From: an uncultured Candidatus Peribacteria bacterium
GTDB lineage: Bacteria; Patescibacteriota; Gracilibacteria; Peribacterales; Peribacteraceae
Length of the DNA: 41,504 nt
Direction: 5' to 3'
Assembly: GCA_964348745.1 (NCBI GenBank)
Contig: CAYGDT010000001.1
Coordinates: 1 to 41,504 of the forward strand
Shown: positions 3,162 to 23,391 of the stretch, piece by piece
How the letters are laid out: the number at the start of each line of letters is the position of its first letter
Position numbering within the stretch: the first letter of the stretch is position 1
Notes under the pieces: model-generated
The model's input: only the letters and a program-made list of their open reading frames with translations
Databases searched by the model: none
Told to the model about the DNA's origin: nothing
Position numbers and translations under genes: made by a program

Positions 3162-3917
3162 TCAGGTATCATTAGCCGTAGTAAAGTCTACTTCGACTTG
3201 GTAATTACCAGATGGCTGCAAACGAGACGATCCGATTTCTACACGGAATCCTACGTAGTGATTATCACCTGCATCACTTGTAGGCGTCGTTGCACTAGCA
3301 AATGCGATGGACGATCCGGAAGCAACGCGTGCCCATTTTTCCGAGGCAGCATCTGTTCCCCACTCTGTGGAATTGATATCGACTGCGGCGTTGTTCTCGC
3401 TGAATACGTCGCTTGTCGAAGAAAGGCGTGCACCCCATTCGGCATCTGTCGCAGAGACGTTACCGGACCATGTTACTGTCGTGGTTTGCGCATCATTGCT
3501 GTTGTTGTAACGGAACGGTAAGATTTTATCCTCATACTGGTTGATCATGTATCCCGTGCTTGTTCCGCCTGTTCCGGTGGTGACTTGCCAGTTGAGAGTG
3601 TAGCCAGTGGTGTTATTGGACTTTACGTTGCAGTGGATATCGCGAGCAGTATTGTACTGGCCGACATCTCCACCAACACCGATGGATCCAAGCGCTAGAT
3701 TTTCATTGTCTCCGTTACTATCGCTGTTTTCATCACCACAGGAAAGTATCGAAGCTGTAGCGGTTACTGTAACGGAAACTTTGCCGTTCGTGTCGGTTGC
3801 TGCAAATCCACGAGCAGGTTCGACGACTAAAACAGCGACGAGGTAGAGGGCAACAGTTGCCGCAATACCAGTTGTAAGAATGCGCATGATGCGCTCTGGG
3901 GAAAGTAAAGTAATCAT
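3162..3917 (-). CDS. Secreted surface protein with a two-Cys beta-sandwich domain (WxL-like or SCPU-like; tentative)
   Basis: 251 aa with an N-terminal signal/anchor (ILTTGIAATVALYLVAVLVV). From about aa 53 to the end it is a clear paralog of the C-terminus of the 8486-10459 protein. Shared motifs: L-S/V-C...LxLGSI...C-x-V, GY[TS]L[NS]W, TG[TS]GGT[SA]TG[YH]MI, EWG, SEKW, V[GE][FS]R[VA]E[IV]GSS[RK][LI]QPSG[NT]Y-x-V-x-VDF. Confidence 0.7.
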   Translation of the reverse strand: MITLLSPERIMRILTTGIAATVALYLVAVLVVEPARGFAATDTNGKVSVTVTATASILSCGDENSDSNGDNENLALGSIGVGGDVGQYNTARDIHCNVKSNNTTGYTLNWQVTTGTGGTSTGYMINQYEDKILPFRYNNSNDAQTTTVTWSGNVSATDAEWGARLSSTSDVFSENNAAVDINSTEWGTDAASEKWARVASGSSIAFASATTPTSDAGDNHYVGFRVEIGSSRLQPSGNYQVEVDFTTANDT

Positions 3918-3980
3918 ATATATATGTGTGTGTAATAAATAAAACGTTGATATTATAACACACTTTTGTAATAAATCAAA

Positions 3981-5684
3981 TCAATCGCTGCAGATGTCGG
4001 TATCAGGTATACAAGAATTTGTGATGAATCCGCTTTCCAGTACACAATTCCCGAGTCGTGAGCATTCCACTGCATCACAGAAATTCCAACTCCCTGCCCC
4101 GCACATTCCACAGGAATCACACTGAGAATCATTGAATATATCCATTGTGACAGTCGGTCCCGTCGTCTCTATGGGAGCAGATGCTTGCAAGATTGACTCA
4201 TCCTCTTCTATAACCCAATTCTCCCGCTCAATGACAACTACATCATACTGGGTGCAACTCTTGTTACCTTCCAAGGCACGATAGAACATCGTGATAAATT
4301 CCGCGCGATTCACCGGATCATCAGGCCGCATGGTGCCTGTTACTGCATCTCCCTGAAGGATGCAAAGATACACTGCGGAGCTGACAACATCTGTGTACCA
4401 AGCACCCGTTGGCACATCGTAGAACAAGGGGTGCTCCATCGATATCGACGTAGCTGATTGAATTCCCAAATACCTCAGTATCAATGCTGCGGCCTGACTG
4501 CGGGTCAAAGCATCCGCCGGAGCAGCAAAGCAAGGCCTGCTTTTGCCATAGCAATCGTTATACCCACGGATCCAATTCTCCGAAGCTGCATTATCGATGT
4601 AGTGGGCATACCAAGCCTGCGGATCCACATCATCAAAGAAACCGCGTGGTACATCGCCACGGCTACCTTTTGCTATTGTCAAAATTTTAGCCGCTTCGGA
4701 GCGAAAAATTCGCTTATCTGGCTCAAAATGCGTACGAGTCGAATCGAGTGCATTCCTACGAAGGAAATACTCAACACCTTCTGCATACCAATTGTCAGTA
4801 GAAACATCGAGATAGGGAATTGATGCAATAAGTGGCAGAGCCTCCTCAACAGTTGGGTGAGGAACGGCATCTATTGTTTCAGTCTGTTGCGATTCTGGAA
4901 TCAAACTGCCGGTAGTGGAGGTTGACGGAGCTACACCAATTCGCGTATCCGAAACGGTGTTAGACGTAACTTGCACTTGACTCAGTCTCCGTGTTCGTCC
5001 CTGTGCAGCTCTGTCATCCCCTGCAACAGATCCTGCACTGCTGCTTGATCCTCCTCCAACGCCTTCGCCATCTTCACTCAATTGAAGAGTGAGACTTACG
5101 ACAGCATCGAGGACATCTACATCACCGTCGCCATTTTCAGTCATATTCGTATCCGTCGTGTCTCCCGCTGTAAAATCGAATGCCAGCGTATAGGAACTCT
5201 GTGCGGAGAGAACTTTAAAATAGAGATGCGCAAAGAGCGCGTCATCCGGCGCACTGCCGGTATTGACCGGACTTGTTCCAGAGGAATCGTATCCGGTTAC
5301 GTACAGTATCCCGTTACTGATTGCGTTGCCCGAATTTGGGTACGCGGTAAATAGTCCGTCCGTTATCGCAGAAGTTGCAGGTGAGCCGGAACAGAGTGCA
5401 TTGTCATACGGTTCCAGAAGCTCTGTGGAGTACGGCAGAATAATGTCTACCGAATTACTGTCCAAAGAATCGGTCTGCACGCGAATATTTACACGAACGC
5501 AGTCACCGACCGCGTAGGAAGTTTCTCCTGTTGAGCTAACGACAGAAATGATCTGTCCTGCAGTGGCATACGCATGCTGCGATCCGGATAGAATCAATAC
5601 TGCAATGCTGACGCCGTAGAGGAATAGAAATTTGCAACGGAGAAAAGACTTGAAATGCCGATGCAGGGAATGTTCAGAGTTCAT
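3981..5684 (-). CDS. Secreted cohesin-like + 3x SLH-domain protein with a Cys-rich C-terminal tail
   Basis: The first ATG is at 5684; the track start at 5699 is TTG. Signal peptide runs to ...SQHAYA. Track aa 48-205 look cohesin-like (VRVNIRV...VDIILPY...LFAHLYFKV...YTLAFDF), followed by a Gly/Ser/Thr linker. Three SLH-type repeats follow (YLDVSTDNWYAEGVEYF, FDDVDPQAWYAHYIDNA, FYDVPTGAWYTDVVSSA). The last about 50 aa hold 10 Cys. Confidence 0.7.
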   Translation of the reverse strand: MNSEHSLHRHFKSFLRCKFLFLYGVSIAVLILSGSQHAYATAGQIISVVSSTGETSYAVGDCVRVNIRVQTDSLDSNSVDIILPYSTELLEPYDNALCSGSPATSAITDGLFTAYPNSGNAISNGILYVTGYDSSGTSPVNTGSAPDDALFAHLYFKVLSAQSSYTLAFDFTAGDTTDTNMTENGDGDVDVLDAVVSLTLQLSEDGEGVGGGSSSSAGSVAGDDRAAQGRTRRLSQVQVTSNTVSDTRIGVAPSTSTTGSLIPESQQTETIDAVPHPTVEEALPLIASIPYLDVSTDNWYAEGVEYFLRRNALDSTRTHFEPDKRIFRSEAAKILTIAKGSRGDVPRGFFDDVDPQAWYAHYIDNAASENWIRGYNDCYGKSRPCFAAPADALTRSQAAALILRYLGIQSATSISMEHPLFYDVPTGAWYTDVVSSAVYLCILQGDAVTGTMRPDDPVNRAEFITMFYRALEGNKSCTQYDVVVIERENWVIEEDESILQASAPIETTGPTVTMDIFNDSQCDSCGMCGAGSWNFCDAVECSRLGNCVLESGFITNSCIPDTDICSD

Positions 5685-6267
5685 CGCCGGTGGTGCCAAG
5701 ATTAGAAACGGCTATTGTCAGATCAATACCATTGACGATACCGTCAAAATTTAGGTCTTCTGCACCATCTGCACCACGGAGCGTATTAGAAATTTGCGTC
5801 ACATCATCCGCACTGATGGCATTATCGTCATTCACATCCCCTGTATAGAGCTTATTTGTGCCGGTGGTGAAATCGATCTGCACTCCCTGCTGTAGCAACA
5901 CAGACAGCTTTTTACGTTTGAGATGTGACGGCGAAAATAAGAGCAATCGATAGATGCCAGGCGGTGCTTTATAGATACGCACCGGTGGAGCCACGCCCGC
6001 GGCATTGACACGGAATTTAATCCGTTCGATCAGTTGCGAACCAAGAAGCGGGTAGATCTCTAAGGTAAGATCGGTCGGTCCACGGCTCTTTTGTGGAGCG
6101 GCAAGTATATCGATAGAATACAAAGGATTGAGCACTGTTACGCCAATGGATACTGCAGAGAGAAGGGGGCTAACGGAAATTCCTGCAAAAATCAAAGAAA
6201 GCATTCCAAAGACACAGAGAAGAAGAGTACATCGCATTCCGAAGCGCTTTGCAGTTGGTTTTTGCAT
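5674..6267 (-). CDS. Membrane-anchored or secreted protein with a C-terminal dockerin-type (double EF-hand-like) module
   Basis: 197 aa with an N-terminal hydrophobic signal. The C-terminus GDVNDDNAISADDVTQISN...EDLNFDGIVNGIDLTIAVSN carries two D-x-N-x-D-x-x-I-x-x-x-D calcium-loop repeats typical of dockerins. Its stop overlaps the ATG of the cohesin/SLH gene (ATGAACTCTGA, 11-nt overlap). Confidence 0.65.
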   Translation of the reverse strand: MQKPTAKRFGMRCTLLLCVFGMLSLIFAGISVSPLLSAVSIGVTVLNPLYSIDILAAPQKSRGPTDLTLEIYPLLGSQLIERIKFRVNAAGVAPPVRIYKAPPGIYRLLLFSPSHLKRKKLSVLLQQGVQIDFTTGTNKLYTGDVNDDNAISADDVTQISNTLRGADGAEDLNFDGIVNGIDLTIAVSNLGTTGDEL

Positions 6268-6281
6268 ATCATACTATTCTA

Positions 6282-7343
6282 TCACACTTTTCGCTTTATT
6301 TCGAACCGACTTTTTACAAACTGCACCAAGAAGGAAACTGTAAATATTGCCAATAATACAAGAAGCGTTGGAACGAGGGGAATGACGAGAAACGATGATT
6401 TCAACTGATTTGCTGGTAATGAATCGCCTGTTTTCACCTCAAAGTGGATATCCGAAGAAACGGTATAGTAGCCAAAGGCAAACTTCGGCAACCACTCGAT
6501 ATACTTGGTATGAGCAGTACCTCGAAGGACATGCCATGTTGGAAGGCTTATCTCATCAACGGGAATGCCAAAAATATTTCGAAACGTCAGTGATCCGACT
6601 GGTGCAATTTGTACCGTTCCTGCATTTCTGACCGTTGCTAACATTCGTGCCGGCAATGACCAGTTAATAAACCGCTCTGGCTTCAGCGAGATAAACGAAC
6701 CGTTCGTAATAACGTCACCCCGCACAGAAACGACAAAGATAATTGAGGTGTAGGCATTCACTTTCACGCCTCCCGACTTTTCTGTCAGCTGTTTTCTCTT
6801 GATCATAATCGCAGCCATATGGTCTCCTGCATCGGCTTTTGCCGGAATTGTCAGCGTGATGGGAATCGTCACCAATTCACCATGGTGCAGCGCGATTTCC
6901 TTCACAGACGGTTGCAACCATTCCTTTGCGGGAAACGGACCGACTTGTCCGGGCTGGTAGAAACGTGGTGTGCCCGATTCCGGATCTGCGCCGAGATCAC
7001 GAACGTAGACTTCGAAAATTGCATCCTCTCCGGCTTTACTGAGGATGGTGATTGTACGCACCAGCTCATCACCCGGATCTGCTACTTCAAAAAATGAACC
7101 CGGTTGCAAGAGAAACCCGCCGTCAACCAGCACATTACTGTTGCGGTTGATGTGAATATCTACAGGACGGGCATCGAATGCATCATCGAGCAGCTGGCGC
7201 TCCTTATCCTCCAATACCTTCTGCTCATCAATGACTTCCTTGCTCAGCAAGCCTGCGGCATTGATTTCCTGCGCGGCAATCGCCGGTGAACCTGCAAAAA
7301 ATATGCAGAGAGAAAACGAAAAGAGAGCTGGGAATGAAATCAT
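6282..7343 (-). CDS. Surface protein with signal peptide and C-terminal TM anchor, DUF916/DUF3324-like (partner of WxL-type proteins; tentative)
   Basis: Start chosen at the ATG giving signal peptide MISFPALFSFSLCIFFAGSPAIAAQE; the track start at 7391 adds 16 unlikely residues. Two beta-rich halves are present (FFEVADPGDELVRTITI..., VRNAGTVQIAPVGSLTFRNIFG...FGYYTV). A single C-terminal TM segment is followed by a basic tail (KSRFEIKRKV). This layout matches my recollection of DUF916+DUF3324 proteins in Firmicutes WxL/Csc loci. Confidence 0.55.
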   Translation of the reverse strand: MISFPALFSFSLCIFFAGSPAIAAQEINAAGLLSKEVIDEQKVLEDKERQLLDDAFDARPVDIHINRNSNVLVDGGFLLQPGSFFEVADPGDELVRTITILSKAGEDAIFEVYVRDLGADPESGTPRFYQPGQVGPFPAKEWLQPSVKEIALHHGELVTIPITLTIPAKADAGDHMAAIMIKRKQLTEKSGGVKVNAYTSIIFVVSVRGDVITNGSFISLKPERFINWSLPARMLATVRNAGTVQIAPVGSLTFRNIFGIPVDEISLPTWHVLRGTAHTKYIEWLPKFAFGYYTVSSDIHFEVKTGDSLPANQLKSSFLVIPLVPTLLVLLAIFTVSFLVQFVKSRFEIKRKV

Positions 7344-7399
7344 CAGTTGCAGCCTATCGACTCTGGATAGAAAAATCCAGAGCAGGTACACTGCAAATC

Positions 7400-7957
7400 A
7401 TGAAGAAAAAAATCTCACTGCTACTCGCTGCTATCGTCATTGCATTCTGCGGATTTATTGCAAGCGTACTGTATTCCTCCTATACGCTCTCGACGCAGAT
7501 TCAAGAGCATGCTGACAACATGACAAAGTATTACGACAAGACGATTACCGAGAATATCCATCCCCTTTTGACACGTGAGCGACTTCTGCCGAATCAGAAG
7601 CGAAATGCTATGCAAATCAAGGAAATGCAAGAATCCATGATGAATGCACAAACTCTCAACGAGAGAATGACAGCAATCCAAAATGTTCAACGGTCATCAC
7701 AGGTTTTTTTGCAGTCAGCTCGAAACGCATCAGGTTCGTTGGTTGAAGACAATCATCTGCAATCCTTTGCGCGCGATATGGGAGAGCAAGGTTCCATCCG
7801 CAAAACTATAGAAGAATATAACGATCTGGCTGGCATGCTCAATGCTCAAAAAAAGTCACTGATAGCTTCACTCCAAGACGAACCGTCACAGGAACTGCCA
7901 CTGCTTCGCTTCGACGGAAGCGTTCCGGATATCGGGAAAATTCAGCTTGGTGAATGA
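7400..7957 (+). CDS. N-terminally membrane-anchored helical protein, weakly LemA-like
   Basis: Start at ATG 7400 gives MKKKISLLLAAIVIAFCGFIASVL. The rest is predicted helical. The C-terminal stretch LVEDNHLQSFARDMGEQGSIRKTIEEYNDLAGMLN loosely resembles the LemA C-terminal region. It is the only plus-strand gene inside the minus-strand surface locus. Confidence 0.45.
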   Translation: MKKKISLLLAAIVIAFCGFIASVLYSSYTLSTQIQEHADNMTKYYDKTITENIHPLLTRERLLPNQKRNAMQIKEMQESMMNAQTLNERMTAIQNVQRSSQVFLQSARNASGSLVEDNHLQSFARDMGEQGSIRKTIEEYNDLAGMLNAQKKSLIASLQDEPSQELPLLRFDGSVPDIGKIQLGE

Positions 7958-7971
7958 CAATCAATAACTTT

Positions 7972-8427
7972 TTATCGCTCCAATGTAACCGGTATCACGT
8001 TCAAAATAATGTCTGTTGATGGGCGATACAAGATTGCCAGAGATGCTGTTACGACGAGGAAATCTCCGTTCATTGCATCCACATAGAACATATTTTTCTC
8101 TCGAAGAAGACCTGCATCAATGACTTCGGCGATAGTAGGTTCAAATCCATCGGGAATTTGAATGTGTCTGCGAACACGCGCGATGATCTCTTTTGCCTTC
8201 TCGGGAGATGGTTGTCTGCTCTCAGCATCGTCTGCATCTTGAGTAGAAAGTTCTTGCCTGTCAGAAAACAGAAAGGGCAAGACAAATGATCCAACTCCTG
8301 CGATAACAAGGAGAAGAACAGCAACAACAATAGCAAGCATGAACCTATGACGCCTTTGCTGCCCTAAGCGAGAATCATGTGGTTGAGGATCATGGGGCCG
8401 GTTAATTTGTGGAGAATCGAAGTCCAT
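7972..8427 (-). CDS. Hypothetical single-pass membrane protein (151 aa)
   Basis: Polar N-terminus, one TM segment (FMLAIVVAVLLLVIAGVGSFVLPFLF), then a soluble domain of about 85 aa. No recognisable motif. Confidence 0.5.
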   Translation of the reverse strand: MDFDSPQINRPHDPQPHDSRLGQQRRHRFMLAIVVAVLLLVIAGVGSFVLPFLFSDRQELSTQDADDAESRQPSPEKAKEIIARVRRHIQIPDGFEPTIAEVIDAGLLREKNMFYVDAMNGDFLVVTASLAILYRPSTDIILNVIPVTLER

Positions 8428-8485: not shown

Positions 8486-10459
8486 CTACGGTGAAGTTAC
8501 AATGAAATCGACGGTCACGTCATACGTGCCGCTGGGTTGAATTTTAGACGATCCGACTTCTGCGCGAAATTGAAGTTGCTCAGACGATCCCGCCGGAGCG
8601 GTACTGGAGTTGCGATTGACAAGTAGCACACTGCTTCCTGTACCGACGTTCAACCATTTTTCACTGGTGAGATCCGTCCCCCATTGAACAGCAGAATCGG
8701 TACTGGAGGACTTTAGTCGACCTCCCCATTCAGACGTTGTCGCAGCGACTGTCCATGTTTCAGGTACTCCTACTACTGAAGGAGAGAACGGTCCAATAGT
8801 GTCCTCGAACTGACTGATCATATGTCCCGTTGCCGTTCCGCCCGATCCGGTCGAGACGAGCCAGGATAACGAGTATCCCGCATCGGATTCCGCAATAACG
8901 GTGCAACTTTCTTCTGCAGTGGTCTGACCGATACCGGGGATGCTCCCAAGATTAAGCGCGGTGAAACAGACGAGGGAAAGAGCGTTGCTAGCAGCTTGCC
9001 TGTACCCTGCTGAAAGATCGTAGTTTTGCGCTCTAGAAAAGCCGACACCTGGTTCGCCGATCGTATCACTCAGGCGGTAGTTATTTGAAAGCGCCAATTC
9101 TCCGCCACCCGAAGCGATAACATCAGCATCGATTTTGTAATTGGCACTTTTTTGAGCGGCATCGTTCGCAATCTGCCAAGCACGCATTTCCTGTGATTCG
9201 ATGCCACGAGTGTCAATAAGAATCAGAGGACCAACAAGATAAAATTCCGGAGAAATATCCGGTGCGTCGTAGATGTACGAAAACGTTGCTTTTTCCCCTT
9301 TATTCCATGTGCCGTTCCATGCAATTGTCGTATCCTCGGTCTGAAAATCTGTTCCTGTCACTGCTTGAGGAGATGTCTGCAGAATGGCAAACCCGCGCGG
9401 AACAATATCGGAGATTGTGCCTGTAAATTCTTCCGTAAACTCCACGTCGATTTCCATACGCGACGGCGCGAAAGGCCAGAGACGGGTCGCTGCGCGACGC
9501 GTGATGATCACCGATGGGGACGATTGCACGGAAACGGAGGAAGTAAGCGTCGTCGTACGCTCAGCAACAATCGATTGCAGCTGCAATGCGTATTCACCTT
9601 CTTGTGTGAACAAAAACGACGCTCTGTAGTCCGGGTCAATCAATCCTGCTTCTTTGACTCCGCAGGATTCGGTCGTCTCTATAGATTCGTCTTCTGTGGA
9701 GAGAACATGTCTGGAACCGTCCGGTGCTATGATAGTGAGCATCACATTCGCATTGCATACAATTTCACCTTGGTCATCCAACACGCCAAAATGCAGCTGC
9801 GCTCTCTCGTTCGTACGATAGCGATCCTGATGTGTATTGAGCGTAAGTACGCCCCATGCAAAGTCTTGCTCTGAATACCTCCCGTCAGTCGACGCGATAC
9901 GCAACGTATAGTACCCTGGACGGAATTGGCGCTCATCCAACGTAAATTCTGCACTGCCGGGCGTAAAATGATAATGAGGAAAATAGGTCACTCCGTCATT
10001 TCGTGTCAGACTCACAGTAACGGAAGTTGTTGGAAGTGGTTGCACTTCAGCAGACAAAGAAGAATTCTCCTGAGACAACCGAGATAATGATGAGTATGCA
10101 CTGCTGGGTGACGAGGAAGAATTGCGCATTGCAGATTGCACGTTCACAACTGTCCCTGCAGGCAAGCTCTCTGCATTGTCCGGTAGAGCATTGCGAAAAT
10201 TTGCACCCTGAGCATCCAAATCCTCCACAAGATCATGCAATGCCGGCGAAAGTTCCAGAGAAAATCCGAAGACTGATGCCGTTGTCGAACGATGTATGAA
10301 GAGGTATCCAGCAAGTACAGCAGACGTAATCAATATGGCAGCAAGGGTGCGTAACTCGCTTCGCCGAGAATGAGTAGCAATGATTGATGGAAAAGTCATC
10401 GGTGTGCATCCTATCAAACTATCAAAGATTACGCATTGTTCAGTAGCGTTGCGACACAT
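8486..10459 (-). CDS. Large membrane-anchored surface protein ending in the same two-Cys beta-sandwich domain as 3162-3917
   Basis: 657 aa; an alternative ATG lies at 10399. It has an N-terminal TM anchor (LAAILITSAVLAGYLFI) and a Ser-rich linker. Ig/MG-like beta domains follow (DRYRTNERAQLHFGVLDDQGEIV...), then a C-terminal domain of about 160 aa paralogous to the 251-aa protein. Confidence 0.7.
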   Translation of the reverse strand: MCRNATEQCVIFDSLIGCTPMTFPSIIATHSRRSELRTLAAILITSAVLAGYLFIHRSTTASVFGFSLELSPALHDLVEDLDAQGANFRNALPDNAESLPAGTVVNVQSAMRNSSSSPSSAYSSLSRLSQENSSLSAEVQPLPTTSVTVSLTRNDGVTYFPHYHFTPGSAEFTLDERQFRPGYYTLRIASTDGRYSEQDFAWGVLTLNTHQDRYRTNERAQLHFGVLDDQGEIVCNANVMLTIIAPDGSRHVLSTEDESIETTESCGVKEAGLIDPDYRASFLFTQEGEYALQLQSIVAERTTTLTSSVSVQSSPSVIITRRAATRLWPFAPSRMEIDVEFTEEFTGTISDIVPRGFAILQTSPQAVTGTDFQTEDTTIAWNGTWNKGEKATFSYIYDAPDISPEFYLVGPLILIDTRGIESQEMRAWQIANDAAQKSANYKIDADVIASGGGELALSNNYRLSDTIGEPGVGFSRAQNYDLSAGYRQAASNALSLVCFTALNLGSIPGIGQTTAEESCTVIAESDAGYSLSWLVSTGSGGTATGHMISQFEDTIGPFSPSVVGVPETWTVAATTSEWGGRLKSSSTDSAVQWGTDLTSEKWLNVGTGSSVLLVNRNSSTAPAGSSEQLQFRAEVGSSKIQPSGTYDVTVDFIVTSP

Positions 10460-22533: not shown

Positions 22534-23391
22534 TTACTCCTCGATCTTCCTAGCAAGCACAATCATACGGTCGCGCGTTGTTCCGACAGGGTAGCAGGTG
22601 ATCATTTTCAGAATGCTTGCATCGTACTGTTGTTCGAGAATGGAGGTGGCAGACGGGGAGACAACTTCCTTGCTCTCGACATTGTACGCAATACCACTGA
22701 CGACGATCTGCTCGCCTATGGCGATGTCCGGCAGTTTTGCAAACAATCTGCCAAAATCGCTGTCTCTCGAGCGAGAATCGGGAGGGCTGCTATGACCGGC
22801 GACAATCAACGTTCCTTGTTGACCTGGATTTACAGAATGTGGATAGGCAACCGCACCGTAGCTTAATCCCACTTGCATTTGCTCTTCAAGAGATTGCCAA
22901 TCATGGGCTGACCAATGCGTCATCGAAGGTAGTAGTACAGGTGCCTTGATACCGAGACTTGGAACCGAAAGTGTCCAAGCATACCGGAGATCCCACTCAC
23001 GAATTTCGTTCGTTGCCGCTGCACGCAAAGTCTCCTTTTGCTGCACAGGTTCTTGCTGTACTGCCAATGTAGGGACATCAGAAGGCGAAGGTTTCAGCGT
23101 AGCCTGAACATGGGTACTTTCAACACGCTGCGTATAGTGTTCCCCAAGATCATCGACAATAACCTCGGAGACTGCGGCAGTCGTATTGACAGTCTGCGCT
23201 GCTGAGAGTGAATCCAACATGCTCTTTAGTGTTGTCAATACATCGGACGGAACCTGAGGAAAAGCAACATGTGAAATCAGTGCAGTCCAAATGGAAAACG
23301 ATGCGAATATCGCAAGAATAGCCACTACGAACGCTTTAGTTTTATGTTTGTTCACTATTAATATTATACAATATTTGTTGATATTTGGCAA
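22534..23391 (-). CDS. Sortase-family transpeptidase (membrane-anchored)
   Basis: N-terminal TM anchor. Catalytic His in LIVAGHSS, the TLxTC-type motif LKMITCYPVG, and the catalytic Arg in TTRDRMIV. Confidence 0.8.
   Translation of the reverse strand: MPNINKYCIILIVNKHKTKAFVVAILAIFASFSIWTALISHVAFPQVPSDVLTTLKSMLDSLSAAQTVNTTAAVSEVIVDDLGEHYTQRVESTHVQATLKPSPSDVPTLAVQQEPVQQKETLRAAATNEIREWDLRYAWTLSVPSLGIKAPVLLPSMTHWSAHDWQSLEEQMQVGLSYGAVAYPHSVNPGQQGTLIVAGHSSPPDSRSRDSDFGRLFAKLPDIAIGEQIVVSGIAYNVESKEVVSPSATSILEQQYDASILKMITCYPVGTTRDRMIVLARKIEE

Follow-up and report, generated by a model that had tools for sequence, protein, structure and literature searches.

What does a cohesin-dockerin pair do in a small bacterial genome that offers it no cellulosome? 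Such pairs are best known from cellulosomes, and Peer et al. are said to have found in 2009 that they are widespread outside them. The question is raised by two adjacent genes of an uncultured Candidatus Peribacteria bacterium, one encoding a 197-aa protein with a C-terminal dockerin (P0001) and the next a 567-aa protein with one cohesin domain and three S-layer homology (SLH) repeats (P0002). Both genes lie in a 41,504-nucleotide stretch of contig CAYGDT010000001.1 (assembly GCA_964348745.1), hereafter the window, and all of their coordinates are window positions on the minus strand (Table 1). The genome assembly that contains the window (G000) comprises 1.37 Mb in 128 contigs and is 99.5% complete; L001 is the locus in GCA_038064175.1, and the other labels beginning with L or G denote loci and genomes of relatives. 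The nearest relatives in homologue searches carry the name Patescibacteria group bacterium, and the literature on cohesins or dockerins in Patescibacteria or the candidate phyla radiation (CPR) yielded nothing that describes this system. Sequence comparison gives firm support to a real, dedicated and conserved dockerin/cohesin-SLH pair of the SdbA/X-Doc architectural type, in a non-cellulosomal setting in a CPR genome.

P0002 consists, in order, of a signal peptide with its likely end at AYA (aa 38-40), a single cohesin domain of ~165 residues, a linker rich in Gly, Ser and Thr, three SLH repeats, and a tail with eight cysteines. Its closest full-length homologue, at 46% identity, is P0004, which is named S-layer homology domain protein (Patescibacteria bacterium). 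A preliminary description of the window, made from its letters and translations, had assigned aa 48-205 to a cohesin-like domain, and profile searches uphold this assignment rather than reject it. When P0002 alone was submitted to Pfam and NCBIfam scans, the Pfam Cohesin family (PF00963) gave no match at E <= 1. Exhaustive searching by phmmer, with aa 36-215 as the query, returned 65 relatives, and Pfam Cohesin was carried by 32 of the 58 that were scanned (best E 7e-17). A profile built from 28 sequences of the P0002 domain matched solved cohesins, among them 3l8q (E 8.5e-13), several of type II and SdbA (2b59_A, 7e-4); the C. perfringens cohesins 2w1n, 2jh2, 2ozn and 2vo8 were also found among the solved-structure matches of the family. 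The fold was checked on the orthologue from G013, which is 40% identical to the P0002 domain, and the cohesin part of its AlphaFold2 (AF2) model was matched by Foldseek to 6kgc_A, 3l8q, 1tyj and 2vo8 (E 3e-6 to 7e-6, probability 1.0).

The three SLH repeats of P0002 were found at residues ~290-333, 350-410 and 420-465 by Pfam SLH (36 bits), by alignment with the Sap SLH domains and by a hidden Markov model (HMM) built from the SLH repeats of this genome, in agreement with the earlier reading. For the second repeat, which holds a CYGKSRPC insertion, the match of this HMM covers at least 350-383. In the model of the G013 orthologue, the SLH part matches the Sap/SpaA SLH triplet (3pyw, E 1e-9, TM-score 0.84). 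About 25 open reading frames (ORFs) with SLH repeats are present in G000 (42 matches). The C-terminal tail, with its eight cysteines in 44 residues, has no Pfam match, is kept in P0004, and is unique in G000; the P0005-7 anchor is built instead of Big_5 repeats, SLH and a transmembrane helix, and ends in that helix rather than in an eight-cysteine tail.

Table 1. Positions in the window of the dockerin and cohesin-SLH genes, their parts, and the neighbouring cluster genes
Feature	Position	Strand	Basis
P0002, 567-aa SdbA-like anchoring protein	3981-5684	-	ORF, homologues
P0002 cohesin domain, aa ~40-205	5070-5567	-	homologues, profile, orthologue model
Three SLH repeats of P0002, aa ~289-466	4287-4820	-	Pfam, Sap SLH, genome-own HMM
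P0002 C-terminal 8-cysteine tail, aa 520-567, CDSCGMCGAGSWNFCDAVECSRLGNCVLESGFITNSCIPDTDIC	3984-4127	-	conserved in P0004
11-nt overlap of dockerin-gene stop and cohesin-gene start, ATGAACTCTGA	5674-5684	-	sequence
P0001, 197-aa dockerin protein	5674-6267	-	ORF and translation
P0001 conserved strand segment, aa 39-57, VSIGVTVLNPLYSIDILAA, candidate donor strand	6097-6153	-	orthologue alignment
P0001 beta-sandwich, X-module-like, aa ~58-140	5848-6096	-	orthologue model and family profile
P0001 short two-loop dockerin, aa 141-197	5677-5847	-	Pfam Dockerin_1, solved dockerins
369-aa WxLIP/DUF916-like protein, putative membrane chaperone	6282-7391	-	Pfam of orthologues, profile
251-aa pilin-like protein, immunoglobulin (Ig)-like domain with Cys pair	3162-3917	-	alignments, AF2
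657-aa protein, tip-adhesin analogue	8486-10459	-	tblastn and alignment

P0001, which is 32-60% identical to its orthologues in six loci, has an N-terminal signal or anchor, then a conserved segment of beta-strand and a beta-sandwich, and ends in a dockerin. The two calcium loops of the dockerin lie at aa 144-155 and 171-182 (DVNDDNAISADD, then DLNFDGIVNGID at the C-terminus), and their residues D144-x-N-x-D...D155 and D171-x-N-x-D-G...D182 are invariant across six orthologues. Dockerin_1 (PF00404) scored 21.9 bits on the protein, just under the Pfam cut-off of 22.9, and 23.2 bits, above the cut-off, at the same locus in a six-frame scan of the genome. A search with the single sequence gave weak matches, all of them to solved dockerins, and a profile of the six orthologues matched solved dockerins at 2e-5 to 1e-3 (4fl4_A 2e-5, 1daq 1e-4). 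The six-frame score and the orthologue profile bear out the earlier proposal that the 197-aa protein ends in a two-loop dockerin.

Ahead of the dockerin, positions 95-200 of the P0001 family profile align with CipA over both its X-module and its type II dockerin (2b59_B, E 1.6e-3), and AF2 models the sandwich region of the G013 orthologue as beta strands with predicted local distance difference test (pLDDT) values of 64-83. The N-terminus of P0001 is basic and is followed by a hydrophobic stretch of ~20 residues (signal or anchor, aa ~13-38), after which comes the strand-like conserved segment, which reads VSIGVTVLNPLYSIDILAAPQK.

The start codon of P0002 lies within ATGAACTCTGA, 11 nt inside the P0001 gene, as the preliminary description had stated. 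The sole other upstream start for P0002, a TTG at 5699, would overlap the dockerin gene too. The same in-frame 11-nt overlap is found in L001 (ATGAACTCTAA) and L005 (ATGAGTTATAG), which with the window makes three lineages; in L001 the gene caller chose a later ATG, yet the in-frame overlap is present. By eye, no Shine-Dalgarno sequence is seen upstream of the P0002 ATG in the window sequence. The overlap and the lack of a visible Shine-Dalgarno sequence argue for translational coupling, and the two genes are probably coupled in this way. Of the earlier claim of stoichiometric co-expression, coupling is thus retained and 1:1 output is not, because an overlap does not establish equal output.

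In seven lineages, among them L001, L005/6/7, G007, G036, G014 and G058, the gene immediately upstream of the cohesin gene is that of the dockerin protein, and G058, which has the same dockerin-then-cohesin order, belongs to a different family. Judged from gene order, this adjacency is greater than chance. In G013 the two genes are fused into one, whose 637-aa product reads helix, sandwich, dockerin, cohesin and three SLH repeats, and a dockerin-cohesin-SLH fusion recurs as P0017 among the metagenome matches. Conserved order, recurrent overlap and the G013 fusion together show that the two genes are functionally linked. In most lineages the dockerin-bearing cargo has 197-209 aa; in G058 it has 646 aa and in G014 1874 aa. 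The anchor type differs as well, being SLH in most lineages and a transmembrane helix in G058.

Larger arrangements of the same parts were also seen. At 589-12333 of L032 (contig C9) in G014, a genome without a WxLIP-like gene, the 1874-aa protein ends in the same dockerin type and is followed, with a short overlap, by two cohesin genes (689 and 1354 aa), giving a larger version of the module. The metagenome homologues P0041, P0049, P0050 and P0056 carry two cohesins followed by a dockerin, like an adaptor scaffoldin. This two-cohesin arrangement suggests multi-tier cohesin-dockerin assemblies among the metagenome homologues of the P0002 cohesin.

Within G000, the partners appear to be nearly exclusive. 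The cohesin family HMM finds P0002 as the sole cohesin of its family in the genome, as the preliminary description had supposed. A lineage dockerin HMM matched P0001 at 1e-29 and one distant second dockerin at 6e-4, leaving P0001 as the one of cognate type. The second dockerin belongs to a 428-aa ORF (contig C40:2327-3637 (+) / L002:1276-2559; Pfam 48 bits), which has two DVNDDGxVTPxD repeats near its N-terminus. It also has the N-terminal motif LRIESLENRRLLS (LESLENRRLLS), which we take to be typical of Planctomycetes-type secreted proteins. Contamination is suspected from this Planctomycetes-like motif; C40 is not an outlier in guanine-cytosine content or tetranucleotide profile. A 605-aa ORF on C3 that had been considered as a second cohesin (16.5 bits) was rejected, as the family HMM gave no match to it and by eye it resembles a repeated Ig-type surface protein.

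The nearest known counterpart of this pair is found in C. thermocellum, where SdbA combines a single cohesin with a linker and an SLH triplet at its C-terminus, and its partner carries a dockerin behind a beta-sandwich (PMC4045903). P0002 has this architecture, and the best scores of its cohesin profile go to cohesins of type II, SdbA included. Unlike the SdbA/CipA system, the pair described here comes without a scaffoldin or enzymes, in a 1.4-Mb CPR genome with one cohesin and two dockerins; its dockerin is short (27 residues between loop starts), its cargo is a 197-aa protein, its genes overlap, with a fusion in one genus, and P0002 has the additional eight-cysteine tail. The marks of a cellulosome, namely a scaffoldin with several cohesins and carbohydrate-active enzymes that bear dockerins, were not found, and no carbohydrate-active enzyme is encoded within 10 kb of the pair, in keeping with the non-cellulosomal setting first proposed for it. 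A cohesin-dockerin pair outside cellulose degradation is a feature shared with the glycoside hydrolase and toxin complex modules of C. perfringens and with other non-cellulosomal pairs, of which there are archaeal and bacterial examples. Those pairs join enzyme to enzyme, whereas here a small non-catalytic protein would be joined to an SLH anchor within a pilus-like cluster.

That cluster is where the preliminary description no longer holds, since it had regarded the pair as self-contained. The pair is embedded in a conserved group of genes for a WxLIP/DUF916-like protein and pilin-like proteins. The gene for the 369-aa WxLIP-like protein ends 14 nt upstream of P0001, and the alignment shows that its product ends in a transmembrane helix and a basic tail. 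Pfam WxLIP_PGBD (PF06030, DUF916) is matched by all six orthologues (best 2.7e-5; the window protein alone gives 0.27), and the family profile matches EfmWxLIP1 (9i25_C and 9i1y_A, E 5e-10). The 251-aa protein was modelled by AF2 with pLDDT 74 and a predicted template modelling score of 0.69, its mature N-terminus (residues 32-52) being disordered ahead of an Ig-like domain, and of the 50 best Foldseek matches of the model nearly all are chaperone-usher pilins (CsuA/B, PapA, FimA/F/G, CfaB, Caf1 and SafA). The last ~170 residues of the 657-aa protein (aa ~490-657) form a pilin-like domain that is 42-44% identical to the 251-aa family; common to both proteins are an invariant Cys pair, GYxLxW, WGARL and a QPxGxY end. 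Profiles of the pilin-like family gave no match to PDB sequences, and in Pfam only a weak one to SCPU (0.059). The WxLIP homologue, the pilin-like proteins and the large protein are kept together with the pair in L001, L006, G007 and G036.

Several further features of the cluster were recorded. The pre-sequence of the pilin-like family is unusually conserved (SPERRxRxLxVG...LYLLxxxVAEPxRGFAAT), with an invariant Glu-Pro, and the tip-like proteins have an internal (I/V)GEP just before the pilin-like domain (SNNYRLSDTIGEPGVG...YDLSAGYRQ); this Glu-Pro or (I/V)GEP element may be a processing or strand motif. Two small membrane-anchored proteins are encoded at 7286-7957 (+; ~185 aa) and 7972-8427 (-; 151 aa), and both are kept in the cluster in L001, L006, G013, G002 and G032. 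A scan of the region for promoters and terminators found no excess over shuffled sequence. The best promoter-like site, at 3952-3979 (-), reads TTGATT-16-TATAAT with an upstream TG and lies between the P0002 stop and the 251-aa gene, so that it could give this putative major subunit a promoter of its own, in a scan whose overall yield is at the shuffled level.

The arrangement of these genes recalls a pilus pathway of Gram-positive bacteria of the phylum Bacillota. In E. faecalis, WxL proteins build a pilus by donor-strand exchange; ElrE, a DUF916/DUF3324 protein, is the membrane-anchored chaperone, ElrA is the tip protein with a C-terminal pilin domain, and ElrB is a small base subunit with a donor strand and LPxTG (bioRxiv 10.64898/2026.10.17.759780, October 2026). 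The same preprint, which screened RefSeq reference proteomes, reports the WxL/Elr pilus to be confined to Bacillota and makes no mention of cohesin, dockerin, SLH or Patescibacteria (bioRxiv 10.64898/2026.10.17.759780); WxL/WxLIP clusters are the subject of a further paper (PMC10599100). The cluster in the window shares with the Elr/WxL system a membrane-anchored DUF916/WxLIP homologue, small subunits of pilin-like type whose N-terminal strand is free, a large protein that ends in the same domain, and a small extra protein at the position of the base subunit. Unlike that system, the cluster has no PF13731 match, no DUF3324 detectable by sequence, and no LPxTG sorting signal among the cluster translations that were read, and has the dockerin and cohesin-SLH proteins instead. 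By analogy, then, the cluster may work like WxL/Elr, while the PF13731 domain on which membership of the family turns was not found in it.

As a measure of whether the pair and the cluster go together, the P0002-type cohesin and the WxLIP-like gene were counted across 37 genera of the family: four have both, one has the cohesin only, four have the WxLIP-like gene only, and 28 have neither (Fisher one-sided p 0.005). Pair and cluster adjoin each other in four lineages of the family, and in a second family the distance between them is 3-10 kb. The G032 cluster, which is without a cohesin and without a dockerin gene, has a protein with Big_5 and three SLH repeats, so that an SLH-anchored component recurs in these clusters with or without a dockerin-cohesin junction. 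In G007, the strand of the P0001-type protein is near-identical to the N-termini of the pilins (TADTGVQFV versus TADTVVQFT; shuffle p 0.005). We treat this donor-strand resemblance between P0001 and the pilins as a lead and not as a result.

Based on these comparisons, and by analogy to the Elr pilus, we propose that the pair tethers the dockerin protein to the wall within a WxL-like chaperone/pilin fibre system, taking the role that LPxTG and sortase have in Bacillota; we give this proposal a probability of about one-half. The P0001 and P0002 genes would be co-transcribed, with translation coupled by the 11-nt overlap. P0002 would be secreted, hold a wall polymer through its three SLH repeats and display its one cohesin, and P0001 would be exported and plug its calcium-loop dockerin into that cohesin. 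By the same analogy, P0001 would take the base-subunit role that ElrB has in Elr/WxL: its N-terminal strand would join the pilin-like fibre, and its dockerin would hold that fibre, by a non-covalent bond, on the cohesin of the SLH-bound protein, a task for which Bacillota use LPxTG and sortase. More tentatively, and with the odds somewhat against it, the locus would encode a pilus whose base subunit, ending in a dockerin, has a cohesin-SLH protein as its wall receptor.

Several results weigh against this proposal. Because the dockerin has pLDDT below 50 in the AF2 model of the G013 fusion (alignment of 12 sequences), that model contains no readable dockerin-cohesin interface. The Foldseek matches of the 251-aa model to pilins are weak (E 0.02-0.7, best 0.019), all of them above 0.001. 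The WxL domain PF13731 gave no match in ten members of the pilin-like family and none at E <= 10 in four genomes. When same-genome and cross-genome strand matches were compared in six genomes, the permutation p was 0.10, and the resemblance was convincing in G007 alone. The fusion and the WxLIP gene of G013 are on different contigs, and G014 has no WxLIP gene, its dockerin ending the 1874-aa protein. A CsaB-type pyruvyl transferase (PF04230) was not detected in the 128-contig assembly of G000. This enzyme was found in 30 of 30 relatives, so the logic of SLH binding to a wall polymer would apply to the lineage, and its absence from G000 is likely an assembly gap. Finally, three clear sortase genes are present in G000 (window 22546-22971 (-), C1:71685-72110 and C71:2064-2471), so that this organism could also anchor proteins to its wall covalently and a non-covalent anchor is not forced.

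Some of these results would also fit a pair that stands alone, a small dockerin protein displayed by the cohesin-SLH protein in a structural or adhesive role, with the WxLIP and pilin-like genes independent of it and often nearby. That reading, which is unlikely though not by a wide measure, is favoured by G013 and G014, in which no cluster adjoins the pair, by a cargo that ranges from 197 to 646 to 1874 aa, as would fit a general-purpose anchor, and by the adaptor architectures with two cohesins and a dockerin among the homologues. It does not sit well with the conserved neighbourhood of the cluster in four lineages and in a second family, with the co-occurrence across genera, with a gap of just 14 nt to the chaperone gene, or with the G007 dockerin protein, whose N-terminus is near-identical to those of the pilins.

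The remaining alternatives concern P0001 itself. Its hydrophobic segment might stay uncleaved, in which case the dockerin-cohesin contact would staple the membrane to the SLH-bound wall layer. A canonical AxA cleavage site is not visible by eye in P0001 after the ~20-residue hydrophobic stretch, and the G013 fusion protein keeps the N-terminal helix (AF2 helix 18-46); the orthologues from G007 and G036, however, show apparently good cleavage motifs by eye (AGA/Q and TQA/A) just ahead of the conserved strand, and we regard such a staple as improbable. Slightly more improbable still is that the partner of the P0002 cohesin is not P0001 and is instead the C40 dockerin or a dockerin of other cells or hosts, or that the P0001 tail is merely an EF-hand-like calcium motif. 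The C40 ORF has the stronger Pfam score and no deviant composition, and the P0001 dockerin is short and borderline in Pfam, but conserved adjacency, the common overlap and the natural fusion all favour P0001, and the C40 dockerin is distant from that of the lineage. From this comparison, we infer that P0001 is the probable ligand of the P0002 cohesin, and we retain the tether within a WxL-like fibre system as our reading of the locus.

A one-to-one cohesin-dockerin pair in a 1.4-Mb genome of episymbiont type thus appears to serve surface architecture. The short dockerin, the single cohesin and the natural fusion make a compact orthogonal pair, predicted to bind, for use in experiments. If the base subunit is anchored by its dockerin, the cohesin-dockerin interaction would be used as a pilus anchor, a modular replacement for LPxTG and sortase. 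If the cluster makes a donor-strand-exchange fibre, the WxL/Elr pilus pathway would reach beyond Bacillota, and its wall anchor would be interchangeable among LPxTG, direct SLH attachment and a cohesin-dockerin-SLH junction. Such a fibre would also give CPR bacteria a concrete and testable candidate attachment apparatus.

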